In this document: positions 6,167 through 35,084 of the stretch, in pieces
Position numbering within the stretch: position 1 is the stretch's first letter
Layout: every line of letters starts with the position of its first letter
Source: a phage
DNA length: 44,362 nt
Sequence record: PZ445525.1
Direction: 5' to 3' (one strand)
Program-made: the position numbers and the translations under genes
Notes under the pieces: model-generated
Database searches by the model: none
The model's input: the letters and a program-made list of their open reading frames with translations, nothing else
Told to the model about the DNA's origin: nothing

Positions 6167-7267
6167 ATGTCTTTAACAGTGTTCCAGCGTAAACTCGTCA
6201 CCGCGGTTACGCAAATGATCCCCGACAACCTGAACGTGTTCAACGCTGCCGCTAATGGTGCTGTTGTTCTCGGCACAGGTGAAGTGCTGAAGGATGTTGT
6301 AGAGAAAATGTCCGTAGGCTTGATCGCCAACCTCGTTACCGACCGTAACGCCTATGCCCCTGTCGGTACTCCGGCAACCGCTAAAGTGCTGGCGCGTATG
6401 CTGACCAACTCGGTTAACCTTTCCGCGAAAGTTGGTCCGGTAGCAATCACGAAGGCCATGATGGCTAAAATCGAAACCAACGTTAACAGCGTTGCGGCTG
6501 AGATTGCGGCGCAGGCTACTCAAGCGATTATGCTGCACTACCTGAAAGCTGGTATCGGCGCAAGTAAAGCGGCGATCGAAAGCAACGCAGCGGCAAAATA
6601 CACCCAACCGGCGCGCGTTGACGGCGTTGGTGGTCGTACCTTCCCGACCCTGGCAGACTTCCCGCTGGCGGCTTCTAAGTTCGGCGATCAGGCGTCTTTG
6701 ATTAAGTCGTGGTTTATGGACGGCGTTACCTGGGCAAACTTCATTGCGTACCAGGCACTCCCTTCCGCTGAACAGGTATTCGCAATTGGCGATCTCCAGG
6801 TAATGGGTGATGGCCTGGGCCGTCGCTTCATTATCTCCGATGCCGCTGCCGATGCTATGGGCGCTGGCACAATGCTGGGTCTGGTCCCTGGCGCGGTTGC
6901 AGTTACCACCAACGGCCTCGATATGCTGGCGCAGGAAAAAGGCGGTAACGAGAACATCGAGCGCTGGTGGCAGGGCGAGTTCGACTTCAACGTGGCTGTT
7001 AAAGGCTATCGTCTGAAGGCGTCCGCTCGTACCCCGATCGAAGGCGTCCGCTCGTTCAAGCTGGACGATATCACCACTTCCGCTAACTGGGAACTGGACC
7101 AGGGCCAGGTAGACAACGCACCGGCAACCGTGCAGGATGTTGGCGCTGTGGGTGATGGCGATACTAAAGGTCGTCGTAAGACCCAGGCCGCACAGGCAGT
7201 GCCTACCCGTCACATCAAGGAAACCGCTGGCGTACTGGTTACGCTGACTGCGACCACCGCGTCTTAA
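6167..7267 (+). CDS. major capsid protein
   Basis: 366-aa ORF with RBS aaagga following the scaffold and followed by a strong terminator; Ala/Gly/Val/Thr-rich composition typical of HK97-fold capsid proteins. Confidence 0.8.
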   Translation: MSLTVFQRKLVTAVTQMIPDNLNVFNAAANGAVVLGTGEVLKDVVEKMSVGLIANLVTDRNAYAPVGTPATAKVLARMLTNSVNLSAKVGPVAITKAMMAKIETNVNSVAAEIAAQATQAIMLHYLKAGIGASKAAIESNAAAKYTQPARVDGVGGRTFPTLADFPLAASKFGDQASLIKSWFMDGVTWANFIAYQALPSAEQVFAIGDLQVMGDGLGRRFIISDAAADAMGAGTMLGLVPGAVAVTTNGLDMLAQEKGGNENIERWWQGEFDFNVAVKGYRLKASARTPIEGVRSFKLDDITTSANWELDQGQVDNAPATVQDVGAVGDGDTKGRRKTQAAQAVPTRHIKETAGVLVTLTATTAS

Positions 7268-7285
7268 CGGGCGCACATCCCAAAT

Positions 7286-7310
7286 GGGCGGGCTTATGCC
7301 CGCCTTTTTT
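7286..7310 (+). terminator. intrinsic terminator after major capsid gene
   Basis: hairpin gggcgggc-ttat-gcccgcc followed by TTTTTT. Confidence 0.7.
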
Positions 7311-7325
7311 ATAGGAGTTAATACA

Positions 7326-7826
7326 ATGTATGGCGACCCGCAAACCTTTGTCGATTATGCCGCTGCGCGAGGCGTTGAAGTCACGTTGGGCGATGCAACG
7401 CGACACCTTACCATCGTCAATGACTTCCTTAACGGCGTCAACTGGATCGGCGAACAAGCGGACACGACCGGAATCGACGCATGGCCCCGCATCAATTACC
7501 CATCGGACGGGAAGCCGGTGCGCGACTCGCTAACCGAAGTCGTGGCGGTAGTGCCTGTCGGGCAAATCGTAGACTTTGCATCAATCCCCGTCGCCGTTGA
7601 GCAAGCCGTTTACCGGCTGGCGCTGTTGGTGGCAGACGAGATCGATATTTCTCCGGTCGGCGATGGTAAAGAGACTATTCGCGAAACGGTCGGCCCGATC
7701 ACGATGGAGTATGACCCGGCGTCGATTGGTAGCGGGGTGTCGTTCCCGTGGTGGGATGGCTTGTTAGGGCACTGGGTTGATTCAGGCGGCAACGCCGCAG
7801 GCAATTTCGACGTATTCAGGGGGTAA
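7326..7826 (+). CDS. hypothetical head/neck protein
   Basis: 166-aa ORF from ATG 7326 with RBS aggag; first gene after the capsid terminator. Confidence 0.45.
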   Translation: MYGDPQTFVDYAAARGVEVTLGDATRHLTIVNDFLNGVNWIGEQADTTGIDAWPRINYPSDGKPVRDSLTEVVAVVPVGQIVDFASIPVAVEQAVYRLALLVADEIDISPVGDGKETIRETVGPITMEYDPASIGSGVSFPWWDGLLGHWVDSGGNAAGNFDVFRG

Positions 7827-7827
7827 T

Positions 7828-7959
7828 ATGAGTCCTGCATTACTCGCGGCGATAATCGCCGCCAACACTAAACGGCAACCAGAACAACCGGAGCCAGAAC
7901 AACCGGAGCCAGAACCAGCACCACCGGCACAGGAGAGTGAAGAAGATGGCGGGCTTTAA
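7828..7959 (+). CDS. small Pro/Glu-rich protein
   Basis: 43-aa ORF with RBS aggggg; contains QPEQPEPEQPEPEP encoded by a 15-bp tandem repeat. Confidence 0.35.
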   Translation: MSPALLAAIIAANTKRQPEQPEPEQPEPEPAPPAQESEEDGGL

Positions 7960-8299
7960 TTACGCAGGATTAAAGCGGAAAGTGAATCCGCTGATTAAAA
8001 AATTCGGCATGACCGTTACGGTTACGCGTCCTGGGGCTGTTGACCGCGTAGACGGCGAAGAAGTGGTCATCCCGCCGACCTCGTTTGACGTCATCGGTCT
8101 TCGCGAGGAGTATAAGCCGAGCGAGATCGACGGAACGCGTATCGTTGCCGGTGATGTGAAGTTTTTATGTCGGGCGGTTGAGCAATTGCGGGTTGGCGAC
8201 CTGGTTAACCTGAACGGCACTGACTACCGGGTCGTCAACCCTAACCCATTGCAACCGGCGGGCACTACCATGCTGTTTCAACTACAGCTAAGGGGCTAA
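7946..8299 (+). CDS. hypothetical neck/head-tail joining protein
   Basis: 117-aa ORF, ATG 7946 preferred over 7937 because of aggag spacing; located in the head-tail connector region. Confidence 0.45.
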   Translation: MAGFNYAGLKRKVNPLIKKFGMTVTVTRPGAVDRVDGEEVVIPPTSFDVIGLREEYKPSEIDGTRIVAGDVKFLCRAVEQLRVGDLVNLNGTDYRVVNPNPLQPAGTTMLFQLQLRG

Positions 8300-8300
8300 C

Positions 8301-8894
8301 GTGGCTGAGGTCTACTCATTCGCCGCCACCATTGCTACGTGGGTGGATAAGACGAAGGAGAACAACGATAAGGCGGTGCGGGCGTACGGTATGCAAATAC
8401 TCGGACGCCTTATTGAGATCTCCCCGGTAGGCGACCCCCGCCGGTGGAAGATTAACAAGGCTTACGCGCTTGCACGCGAACACGCGAACAAGGTGAACGC
8501 GGCGCAGCGCCGCAAGAACGGCGGCAAACTGAAGCGCGGGCAGAAGAAGCACGCCAGTGTGCTCGTCTCATTCAAAACTAAAAATGGCAATGTCACGTTC
8601 CGCCAGCGTGGCTGGGCCGCGAAGAATTACACCGGCGGACGCTTCCGGGGAAACTGGCAGGTTACGTTCGACCGCCCAGCTGTCGGAGCTATTGACCGCG
8701 TGGACAAGGCCGGAACGGCAACATTAGCCGCGGGGCGCGAAGTGCTGGCGCATTACGATTCCGGAGAATACGGGTCTATCTGGTTTACTAACAATGTGCC
8801 GTATGCGCAGCGACTTGAGTATGGCTGGAGTAAACAAGCGCCCGCGGGGATTGTTCGCGTCGTAGCGGCGGAAATTAATTCGAAGGTGAAATAA
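8301..8894 (+). CDS. hypothetical neck protein (GTG start)
   Basis: 197-aa ORF starting at GTG with RBS aagggg; basic central region; position between capsid and tail genes. Confidence 0.45.
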   Translation: MAEVYSFAATIATWVDKTKENNDKAVRAYGMQILGRLIEISPVGDPRRWKINKAYALAREHANKVNAAQRRKNGGKLKRGQKKHASVLVSFKTKNGNVTFRQRGWAAKNYTGGRFRGNWQVTFDRPAVGAIDRVDKAGTATLAAGREVLAHYDSGEYGSIWFTNNVPYAQRLEYGWSKQAPAGIVRVVAAEINSKVK

Positions 8895-9316
8895 TGAGCA
8901 ATACTCTAATCCGCAAGGCGCTTAATAGCGTAGTAGAAGAATTATCGGTAAGCCTGAGCACTAGCACGCGCCCGATAAAGGTTAACTGGGAGAACGTGAG
9001 CGGCGACCACGCAAACGGCAGCGGTGTCTACCTGGAACCGTATCTGCTCCCGGCCCCTACCCAGTTTGTGGGCTTCCAGCAGAAGGGCCGGGTCTATGCA
9101 GGCGTGTATCAGGTTGCCGTGGTATTTCCTGCAGGCACGGGCACACAGTATGCGAGCGAACTGGCGGACGCCATCGCGACGTCTGACAAGTGGCAGGCCG
9201 TAAGGCTTACCAGCGCTGCATTCCAGCTTCAGGACGCGCCATACACCAGTTCGGTGATTGAGGATGTTGACCGCGCCCGCATCGTGGTTACAGTGCCCTA
9301 TTCCTGTTGCGCCTGA
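8894..9316 (+). CDS. hypothetical tail completion/terminator candidate
   Basis: 140-aa ORF whose ATG overlaps the preceding stop; immediately upstream of the major tail protein. Confidence 0.4.
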   Translation: MSNTLIRKALNSVVEELSVSLSTSTRPIKVNWENVSGDHANGSGVYLEPYLLPAPTQFVGFQQKGRVYAGVYQVAVVFPAGTGTQYASELADAIATSDKWQAVRLTSAAFQLQDAPYTSSVIEDVDRARIVVTVPYSCCA

Positions 9317-9377: not shown

Positions 9378-10103
9378 ATGGGTTATCAACTTCCTAACGG
9401 GTCCAGCGTCCAGATTGGGTCCGTACTGGGCAGCGGCATCGCTGTTACGGCAGCTACCAACGCCGCCGCGTCGATCTCCGACCTTACGCAAGGTTGCGTA
9501 ATTACCTGTGCGGCTTCGCATGGCCTGGTTGTTGGCGACGTTGTTATGTTCACTAAAACCCCGTGGGTCCGAGCGCTTAACCGCGCATTCATCGTGGGTA
9601 AAGTGGACACCAACGACGTTACGCTGGCGCGCTTCGACACCGAAGACGTCACAAAATACCCGACCGGCGCTTTCAGCGTAGGCACTCCGGGCGAAGTGGT
9701 GAAGGTGTCGAGCTTTATCGACTTCCCTTTCATTACTAACGTTGCCGTGTCTGGTGGCGACCAGCAGACGACTACCTTCCAGCCGTTGCAGGTGAACACC
9801 GCAATCAGTCTGAACACCACGAAAAACCCGTTGGTACAGACTTACACTTTCACCCACGACGAAGAAGACCCGATCCGCCCAATCCTGGAAGACCTGGACG
9901 ACACACAGAAAACCACTGTGATCAAGTTCACTAACCCGGCAGCGGCAAGCGGCAAAGGTGAGATCCGTATTTACCCAGCTAAGGTATCTTTCCAGAAGAT
10001 TCCGTCCGCTGAAGTAAACAACGTGGAAACGGTACAATCCACTCTGACCATGCAGTCTGATATGGTTATCTACCGTAAGGATCTGGTCGAGGCATTGTCT
10101 TGA
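9378..10103 (+). CDS. major tail (tube) protein
   Basis: 241-aa Thr/Val/Ser-rich ORF with RBS aggag, immediately upstream of the G/GT chaperone pair and followed by a terminator. Confidence 0.65.
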   Translation: MGYQLPNGSSVQIGSVLGSGIAVTAATNAAASISDLTQGCVITCAASHGLVVGDVVMFTKTPWVRALNRAFIVGKVDTNDVTLARFDTEDVTKYPTGAFSVGTPGEVVKVSSFIDFPFITNVAVSGGDQQTTTFQPLQVNTAISLNTTKNPLVQTYTFTHDEEDPIRPILEDLDDTQKTTVIKFTNPAAASGKGEIRIYPAKVSFQKIPSAEVNNVETVQSTLTMQSDMVIYRKDLVEALS

Positions 10104-31593: not shown

Positions 31594-32331
31594 TTAACGG
31601 CGGCGACGTGTACGTGGTGCTTCGTCTTCGTCTTCGTCGTCGTCCTCATCTTCGTCGTCATCGCGGCGCTTGGATTTCTTGGACTTGCGCGGCTTGTCAT
31701 CTTCATCATCGTCATCACGACGTTTTGACTTCTTAGCCTTGCGCGGTGCTTCGTCTTCGTCGTCGTTGTCCAGGTCTTCATCGGAGCAAGAAGACCCGCC
31801 ACCTCCGAAGGCTTCGCCGTCTTCACGGAATCGCAGACCCAGCAAGCCTGCCCCGAGTCCCTTGCCGTTGGTATTGTTCCACGCCCAAATATCAAGGGAC
31901 ACGTTGCAATAACAACCGGAGTAGATCTCCTGGCCTTCAATCTCGTCGCCGTCGACGGTCAGACCCTGTTCAGTCTGCTTCTCGCCTAGTGACGTTTGAA
32001 TGATAGGCTGTTTGAACGATTTGGCGTTGATGTACAACATGCCTTCGAATTCTTCGGTCACTTCGTCGCGCTCGTCGCCGTCGCGAACTGCACATTCCTT
32101 AGAATCTTGGGCGTAGTGGCGGTCCATCCACTTATCGGCATTCTTCTCGGATTTCAGCTTGTCGGTGAGCACTGCGCGTGCTGCCGCTTCCACTTTGTCC
32201 ACCTGCGGATCTTCTTTATCCAGAAGAATAACGGCACGGTATGCCGGTTTTTGTCCATCCTGTTTAGGGGTATCACGCTCCCAAATTTTCAGGAAGCATA
32301 CGCGCACATTTTTCAGGTTGACTTTAGCCAT
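31594..32331 (-). CDS. ssDNA-binding protein candidate (DUF2815-like) with acidic/basic repeat tail
   Basis: 245-aa ORF from MAKVNLKNVRVCF with RBS gagga; C-terminus has alternating K/R-rich and D/E-rich tandem repeats. Confidence 0.55.
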   Translation of the reverse strand: MAKVNLKNVRVCFLKIWERDTPKQDGQKPAYRAVILLDKEDPQVDKVEAAARAVLTDKLKSEKNADKWMDRHYAQDSKECAVRDGDERDEVTEEFEGMLYINAKSFKQPIIQTSLGEKQTEQGLTVDGDEIEGQEIYSGCYCNVSLDIWAWNNTNGKGLGAGLLGLRFREDGEAFGGGGSSCSDEDLDNDDEDEAPRKAKKSKRRDDDDEDDKPRKSKKSKRRDDDEDEDDDEDEDEAPRTRRRR

Positions 32332-34574: not shown

Positions 34575-35084
34575 TTAATCTTCCAGTTCGAAATAGGTTT
34601 CGACGATTTCTTTTAGCTCTTTGTGGAAGTCTTCGACGTCGTCATCTTCCAGCTTGGCGATTGATTTGATCTCGAACGCTTCCAGCAGATCATCAAATTC
34701 GTCGTTAGCGTCGTCGTCATCACCACCGGCAATAATCGCGGCATACTGTTTGATTTCGTCGCGCATCTCCGCCAGCGGATCGGCATCTTTCTTACCTTTG
34801 CCTTTCGCCGGTGCTTTTTTAGCCTTAGCCGGTTTTTCGTCTTCGGCGTCTTCGTCGTCATCTTCTACGACTTCTTTTTTGGCCTTGCCTTTCGCCGGTG
34901 CTTTTTTAGTTTTCGCCGGTGCTTCGTCGTCAGCGTCGTCATCTTCTACGACTTCTTTTTTGGCCTTAGACGGCTTCTTGTCTTCCTGTTTACCAACGGC
35001 AGCGCCAACGGTTTCATAATGTTTGGCGATGGTTTCCAGTGCTACTACGCCGCGAGTGATCAGGTTTACGATTTGTTCGAACAT
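34575..35084 (-). CDS. acidic repeat protein, first gene of leftward operon
   Basis: 169-aa ORF from ATG 35084 with RBS ggaga; two tandem ~24-aa repeats KKEVVEDDD-D-E-PAK-KKAPAKGK-KK. Confidence 0.5.
   Translation of the reverse strand: MFEQIVNLITRGVVALETIAKHYETVGAAVGKQEDKKPSKAKKEVVEDDDADDEAPAKTKKAPAKGKAKKEVVEDDDEDAEDEKPAKAKKAPAKGKGKKDADPLAEMRDEIKQYAAIIAGGDDDDANDEFDDLLEAFEIKSIAKLEDDDVEDFHKELKEIVETYFELED

Follow-up and report, generated by a model that had tools for sequence, protein, structure and literature searches.

A small gene between the adaptor and stopper genes of Dhillonvirus-type phages encodes a length-variable Pro/Glu tract and a candidate neck or capsid accessory protein

The window analysed here is the whole of a 44,362-nucleotide stretch of phage DNA (sequence record PZ445525.1) which, judged by its sequence, derives from a Dhillonvirus-type siphophage of E. 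coli. More than 150 records, in addition to Sodalis phage SO-1, slur05, GeorgBuechner and EK99P-1, match positions 6167-9316 at 93-96% identity. Near-identical Dhillonvirus genomes are deposited under unrelated host names, including the Sodalis phage SO-1, Acinetobacter phage NJ01, Campylobacter phage A144 and Salmonella phage Kenya-K19, and host labels within the genus are to be used with caution. Pfam and PHROG matches order the neck region of the window as major capsid protein, Ad1, small ORF, Hc1, Neck1/tail completion, tail terminator and major tail protein. This synteny is shared by the window and every relative, and the neighbours Ad1 and Hc1 place the small ORF in the neck gene cluster, as an earlier note on this DNA had proposed. 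The features of the region are the following.

6167-7267: major capsid protein (Pfam/PHROG)
7326-7826, plus strand: Ad1 head-tail adaptor (PF20557, E 7e-14; phrog_477, E 5e-38; annotated with 166 aa in relatives)
7818-7823, plus strand: Shine-Dalgarno-like AGGGGG, made by the final Arg-Gly codons of Ad1 (from the sequence)
7828-7959, plus strand: small ORF of 43 aa and a stop codon, belonging to phrog_11158
7828-7872, plus strand: codons 1-15 of the small ORF (MSPALLAAIIAANTK), predicted hydrophobic N-terminal helix, overlapping no other gene
7873-7932, plus strand: acidic Pro/Glu/Gln-rich tract (RQPEQPEPEQPEPEPAPPAQ), a spacer of variable length
7879-7915, plus strand: exact 15-bp tandem repeat in 2.5 copies (CCAGAACAACCGGAG; TRF)
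7932-7959, plus strand: dual-use 3' end of the small ORF (ESEEDGGL and stop), containing the Hc1 Shine-Dalgarno sequence GGAGAG (7932-7937) and the Hc1 ATG (7946)
7946-8299, plus strand: Hc1 head closure/stopper (phrog_161, E 2e-31)
8301-8894: Neck1/tail completion (Pfam/PHROG)
8894-9316: tail terminator (Pfam/PHROG)
9378-10103: major tail protein (Pfam/PHROG)

The longest ORF for Ad1 begins, by a mechanical call, at 7284 and would take in an intrinsic-terminator-like hairpin at 7286-7305 on the plus strand (GGGCGGGC-TTAT-GCCCGCCT, followed by T6). Since the hairpin lies inside this longer ORF and relatives are annotated from the 166-aa start, the real start of Ad1 is probably 7326. The hairpin is located just past the stop of the capsid gene at 7267 and may attenuate transcription into the neck genes. 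At the other side of the small ORF, Hc1 is approximately 91% identical to chain A of PDB entry 10lj, a 119-aa 'Stopper protein gp12', so that a structure of a Dhillonvirus stopper exists; the numbering in that entry implies that the small ORF is gp11. A sequence search of the PDB gave only a chance match for the small ORF (E 7.4) and none for Ad1.

The small ORF runs from the ATG at 7828-7830 to the TAA at 7957-7959, exactly as the earlier note had placed it, and its 43 codons read MSPALLAAIIAANTKRQPEQPEPEQPEPEPAPPAQESEEDGGL. The product is a protein of about 4.4 kDa with nine prolines, eight glutamates and a net charge of about -7, whose N-terminal tryptic peptide is M/SPALLAAIIAANTK. The good ribosome binding site that had been credited to the ORF is the AGGGGG sequence 4 nt before the ATG, and the Ad1 stop codon (TAA, 7824-7826) lies 1 nt upstream of the same ATG, a layout suited to translational coupling. 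An arrangement of GGGG(G), stop, one or two nucleotides and ATG is kept in all relatives. As previously noticed, the ORF also overlaps the start of the next gene: it extends 14 nt over the Hc1 ATG, and the same 14-nt overlap recurs in nearly all loci, with the alleles of Teewinot and SM_A2 ending before or at the Hc1 ATG. Its frame is open upstream to 7777, and the Hc1 frame of the window is closed directly upstream of the Hc1 start. Folding of the RNA from 7800 to 7975 yields no structure signal (z -0.52), and a scan for promoters and terminators finds none inside the small ORF.

The centre of the ORF is built on the exact repeat that TRF reports at 7879-7915, with a period of 15, 2.5 copies and a 100% match to its consensus. 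The unit codes for PEQPE, which is the (QPEPE)n of the earlier note in another register, and the 2.5 copies agree with the number given there. It is the only exact tandem repeat with a period of at least 10 and at least two copies in the 44-kb window; such repeats are lacking from 29 of 30 dinucleotide-preserving shuffles, and the remaining shuffle contains one case of 20 nt. Imperfect tandem repeats occur elsewhere in the window at 31641-31766 (54 bp, 2.3 copies, 73% match) and 34798-34967 (81 bp, 2.0 copies, 86% match), with shorter periodicities around 31620-31717. In a DNA alignment with SO-1 and the loci L002 and L031, the window carries exactly one additional 15-bp unit between two CCAGAAC heptamers. 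Since relatives that do not have the extra unit still carry the ORF, the repeat is a recent 15-bp addition to a gene that already existed.

Repeat number had been put forward as a feature to compare among related phages, and it proves variable, with the window one unit above its closest relatives. Alleles of 32, 36, 37, 38, 39, 43, 46, 56, 72, 122 and 147 aa are found across the loci, the modal form being 38 aa (21 loci) and that of the window 43 aa. All length differences among relatives are in-frame and confined to the P/E tract, and the repeated unit differs by lineage: 15 bp in the window, five copies of 30 bp in Teewinot and (GAGCCA)n in bov11C2, bov25_1D and SM_A2. Such a pattern is what replication slippage leaves behind in a tract constrained in frame and composition only. 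As at contingency loci, copy number differs between near-identical genomes: bov11C2 and bov25_1D have flanks that are 99.8-100% identical and ORFs that differ by 30 nt, and the window differs from SO-1 by 15 nt. The on/off frame switching of such loci is not found, for the units measure 6, 15 or 30 bp and all alleles remain in frame. The small ORF is therefore a slippage locus but not a phase-variable one, as the frame is never switched by changes in the repeat; the sole frame change, in Ioannina, arises from single-base insertions outside any repeat unit.

The interval between Ad1 and Hc1 was compared in 40 Dhillonvirus-type loci, comprising the window, 15 IMG/VR contigs, 11 metagenome contigs, 12 GenBank phages and one Logan contig, with some phages present in two of these collections. 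In 39 of the 40 the ORF is intact and separate and begins at an ATG of its own, the exception being Ioannina. The earlier note had regarded absence from relatives with otherwise conserved neighbours as grounds for dismissing the ORF; within the genus no such pattern is seen, and it appears only in distant genera. In nine more distant relatives that share the neck module (Susuwatari, Elanor, Scapp, phiEB49, KP36, Sip, KW1E_UTAR, Koroua and Smarc2) the small ORF is absent and the Ad1 stop abuts or overlaps the Hc1 start. Between these extremes lies Edwardsiella phage eiAU-183 of the Eiauvirus genus, whose Ad1 is 40% identical and which has an unannotated positional homologue of 51 codons (L027, 2340-2495). 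This homologue begins MISIPVTAALIAV; its N-terminus is hydrophobic, its middle is rich in P, Q, A and E, and its acidic end extends 23 nt into Hc1. Because no such ORF occurs in the nine more distant relatives, the gene is an addition specific to Dhillonvirus and Eiauvirus, and because related genera assemble the same neck module without it, it is accessory at most.

The protein family is already catalogued as phrog_11158 and pVOG VOG10345, both 'hypothetical protein'. Residues 1-42 of the window product match profile positions 1-38 of 38 of phrog_11158 with an E-value of 8.4e-17 (62.3 bits), and a protein search yields 27 clusters of 34-44 aa that are all 'hypothetical protein' or unnamed. 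TheodorHerzl gp11, SECphi18 gp28, EE09_26, bob gp29 and K19_010 of Salmonella phage Kenya-K19 exemplify the family; they are the same gene in the same position with the same architecture, and nothing essential sets the window apart from them. K19_010 is likewise 43 aa long and 93% identical to the window allele, which itself differs from the modal 38-aa form by Ser2 and one extra PEQPE unit. The new observations on the family are modest: alleles that carry an Ig-like domain, a homologue in Eiauvirus and the analysis of selection. Ksap1, a Dhillonvirus protein sensed by KpAvs2, is a different gene that encodes 74 aa and lies between methyltransferase and phosphatase genes (PMC11564622).

Codons 1-15 are near-invariant across the 27 protein clusters. 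Selection was assessed by pooled Nei-Gojobori pN/pS over codons 2-14, which overlap no other gene. In the ORF frame the ratio is 0.15 for the main clade and 0.35 for all clades, compared with 5.2 and 2.6 in frame +1 and 2.7 and 3.2 in frame +2. The first 16 codons occur as 20 distinct DNA haplotypes, in which 14 variable sites fall in third, eight in first and seven in second codon positions. These substitution patterns indicate that purifying selection preserves the amino acids of the N-terminal segment, and does so in the ORF frame only. The conservation of EEDGGL at the C-terminus is uninformative about the small protein, because this end is encoded by the Shine-Dalgarno sequence and first codons of Hc1. 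The small ORF is thus very probably a real protein-coding gene.

In several records the ORF is left out, antisense ORFs are placed over the repeats or Hc1 is made to run through it. The GenBank records of Teewinot (gp10; L017, 2086-2247, minus strand) and SM_A2 (XEC67346; L019, 2283-2489, minus strand) have antisense ORFs that span the expanded P/E repeats or the Ig insert; both are probably misannotations, and the conserved forward ORF is unannotated in either genome. SM_A2 additionally contains, at about 2386-2600 of L019, a direct duplication of approximately 110 bp that comprises part of (GAGCCA)n and the first 26 nt of Hc1. The duplication creates two Hc1 starts and could be a real repeat-mediated event or an assembly artefact. 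In ZCEC11 (L043, 852-1316) Hc1 is annotated from an upstream start and reads the repeat in another frame, with the small ORF intact. In Ioannina (L026, 2043-2504) the small ORF and Hc1 are annotated as a single CDS of 153 aa; this fusion is probably a sequencing error, given that it depends on two 1-nt insertions absent from the sister phage LM40P1, and it is unreliable as a 'Rosetta stone' for contact between the small protein and Hc1. The small ORF should be called in Dhillonvirus and Eiauvirus genomes.

AlphaFold2 run with the family alignment predicts a helix at residues 3-14 (pLDDT about 89) and a remainder of coil with no secondary structure. The product is accordingly modular, a hydrophobic helix being followed by an extended acidic P/E tract. 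The suggestion that the ORF encodes a linker-like peptide holds for the central tract, which is unstructured in the model, tolerates large in-frame expansions and flanks the Ig insert described below. A signal-peptide or transmembrane reading was rejected on inspection, the hydrophobic run being approximately 10 residues long with no N-terminal positive charge and no cysteine. Where a folded capsid- or neck-binding domain was looked for, a single helix of 12 residues is predicted and nothing more. Glu-Pro and Pro-Glu tracts form extended, polyproline-like spacers. The tract of the small ORF resembles the periplasmic spacer of TonB and the EP repeats of trypanosome procyclin in composition only. 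A TonB protein is among the low-complexity matches of the search, and the Pfam procyclin model PARP matches the SM_A2 allele with an E-value of 1e-9 and 38.9 bits, which is below its 100-bit cut-off. The features that would identify a TonB are missing from the small ORF, which has a hydrophobic run of only about 10 residues, no transmembrane anchor and no C-terminal TonB domain.

Two alleles carry an Ig-like domain of approximately 85-90 aa; the window ORF has no Pfam match and no Ig-like domain. The 147-aa ORF of SM_A2 is composed of the usual N-terminus, a PPDPIPD linker, the Ig-like domain (Pfam Ig_3, E 2e-6, with weaker matches to Ig_2 and I-set) and (PE)17. P0028, from the independent Logan assembly SRR10023924, encodes 122 aa with a precomputed PF13927 match, identical synteny and the usual 14-nt overlap with Hc1. 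The independent assembly, the identical synteny and an identity of only 67% between the two alleles show that the Ig-bearing form is an evolving lineage and not an assembly artefact. A homology search seeded with P0028 recovered only P0028 itself, and an AlphaFold2 single-sequence model of this allele (pLDDT 48) is too low in confidence to use. The nearest Ig domains, at about 40% identity, belong to HK97-type major tail subunits, to T5-like 'Hoc-like head decoration' proteins and to proteins annotated 'whisker'. The Ig-like C-terminal domains of the HK97-type tail subunits are the closest sequence relatives of the insert in both long alleles; those subunits are large structural proteins to which the domain is added, whereas in the small-ORF alleles it is inserted in a 38-aa mini-protein. 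Such kinship, as read from sequence identity, would illustrate how promiscuously Ig modules pass between exposed structural proteins of phages.

Several explanations may be offered for a gene of this kind. A spurious ORF or non-coding spacer born of the tandem repeat, which the earlier note had entertained, would fit the very short length and low complexity of the ORF and the annotations that pass over it or prefer antisense ORFs. It is opposed by conservation in 39 of 40 loci and in Eiauvirus, by the preserved frame, by pN/pS values that point to selection on the repeat-free N-terminus, by the relatives that keep the ORF with no extra repeat unit and by the flat RNA-folding result. On comparative grounds this reading already appears effectively refuted, and of the explanations considered here it deserves the least credence. 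Scarcely more credible is a frameshift or fusion module, in which the frame would extend either Ad1 at its C-terminus, by way of a +1 shift at AGG-GGG-TAA, or Hc1 at its N-terminus. In phages, programmed frameshifting is sometimes the means by which Ig-like domains are added to proteins, and both this precedent and the frame being open to 7777 would suit such a module, as would the fusion read in the Ioannina record. Yet the small ORF keeps its own ATG and Shine-Dalgarno sequence in every locus, the Hc1 frame of the window is closed just 5' of the Hc1 start, and the Ioannina fusion results from the two insertions that are likely sequencing errors. Extension of Ad1 is rejected for lack of a conserved frame offset, the gap after Ad1 being 1 nt in most loci and 2 nt in the clade of L015, L026, L028 and L040 and in eiAU-183.

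It is also improbable that translation itself is the function, carrying ribosomes from the Ad1 stop to the Shine-Dalgarno sequence and ATG of Hc1 and setting the ratio of Ad1 to Hc1, with the peptide as a by-product. The spacing speaks for such an ORF, for it starts 1-2 nt after the Ad1 stop and ends 14 nt into Hc1 with the Hc1 Shine-Dalgarno sequence in its last codons; so do a peptide middle that tolerates nearly any P/E length and the outgroups, which couple Ad1 and Hc1 by direct abutment. A by-product would not be expected to show amino-acid-level purifying selection at codons 2-14 while synonymous sites vary freely, to retain its hydrophobic N-terminus in eiAU-183 despite sequence turnover or to maintain an in-frame Ig-like domain in two lineages, and the alleles of Teewinot and SM_A2 demonstrate that the overlap is not obligatory. 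A somewhat better candidate, though still an unlikely one, is an assembly factor that does not enter the virion: its helix would bind Ad1 or Hc1 transiently during head completion and then be released, for example blocking premature oligomerisation or timing the binding of the stopper, with the P/E tail providing solubility or steric hindrance. The location of the gene between two head-completion genes, to which it is translationally coupled, and its dispensability in related genera agree with this role. Shotgun proteomics of a lysate of phage EE09 listed 24 phage proteins (PMC10673088), and the product is not listed there, which is likewise in keeping with such a factor; a text search of that study for CDS26, taken as the 35-aa homologue EE09_26, did not find it, in data that are insensitive for this region, given that the listed neck-region proteins CDS24 and CDS27 are represented by one peptide each (PMC10673088). 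Ig insertions akin to exposed tail and decoration domains would be unexpected on a transient chaperone, and the tolerance of spacers of 17 to more than 50 residues suggests a freely projecting tail instead.

On balance, the explanation given slightly better than even chances is a small accessory protein docked to the neck or capsid with a spacer tuned by slippage, and a minor accessory protein of the virion is a likelier reading of the ORF than an artefact. It is proposed that the gene, which would correspond to gp11 of HK578-like phages, is independently initiated inside a tightly coupled neck operon. The N-terminal helix of 12-15 residues, too short to span a membrane, would most likely dock into a partner protein, and the acidic Pro/Glu tract would form an extended spacer or brush whose repeats of 6, 15 or 30 bp grow and shrink by replication slippage, always in multiples of three. 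The protein would then be a minimal accessory of decoration or whisker type, displayed on the virion exterior and attached either close to the adaptor/stopper ring or to the capsid. Display is suggested by the closest relatives of the Ig insert, which are surface domains of tail subunits and of T5-type head-decoration proteins; phage Ig-like domains reportedly occur on exposed virion structural proteins, and the argument draws on two alleles together with this generalisation. Exposure on the virion is plausible, at a little under even chances. The predicted 12-residue helix would be a very small anchor, which counts against the docking proposal. The EE09 protein list, which does not contain the product, and the related genera that do without the gene weigh in the same direction. 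Literature searches on Dhillonvirus cryo-EM, on neck or whisker descriptions and on escaper mutations in the small ORF found nothing relevant.

In its proposed function the small ORF would most resemble T5 pb10 and T4 Hoc. In these accessory virion proteins, as in the T5-like 'Hoc-like head decoration' proteins, an exposed Ig-like domain is combined with a flexible linker and a small element for docking. The Ig domain of SM_A2 is approximately 40% identical to the Ig domains of the decoration proteins of DT57C and Gostya9. In contrast to pb10 and Hoc, the window allele lacks an Ig domain, its putative anchor is a stretch of about 12-15 residues rather than a folded capsid-binding domain, and the gene resides in the neck cluster. 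A bolder and more tentative possibility is that the helix of about 12-15 residues alone docks onto the Dhillonvirus neck or capsid and acts as a natural display tag for exchangeable cargo. The cargo would be the slippage-tuned acidic Pro/Glu brush and, in some lineages, an Ig-like adhesion domain.

If the inference of display is wrong, the ORF is an ordinary conserved small gene without an assigned function. If the protein is displayed on the virion, it would show how short a sequence can be and still fix cargo to a phage particle, and how an accessory protein on the virion surface is diversified by microsatellite-like slippage and by the insertion of domains. This could help in the engineering of display on well-behaved siphophages of E. 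coli, among them the BASEL Dhillonviruses. As a display tag it would be smaller than any phage decoration or whisker protein known and would offer siphophage display a ready-made anchor.
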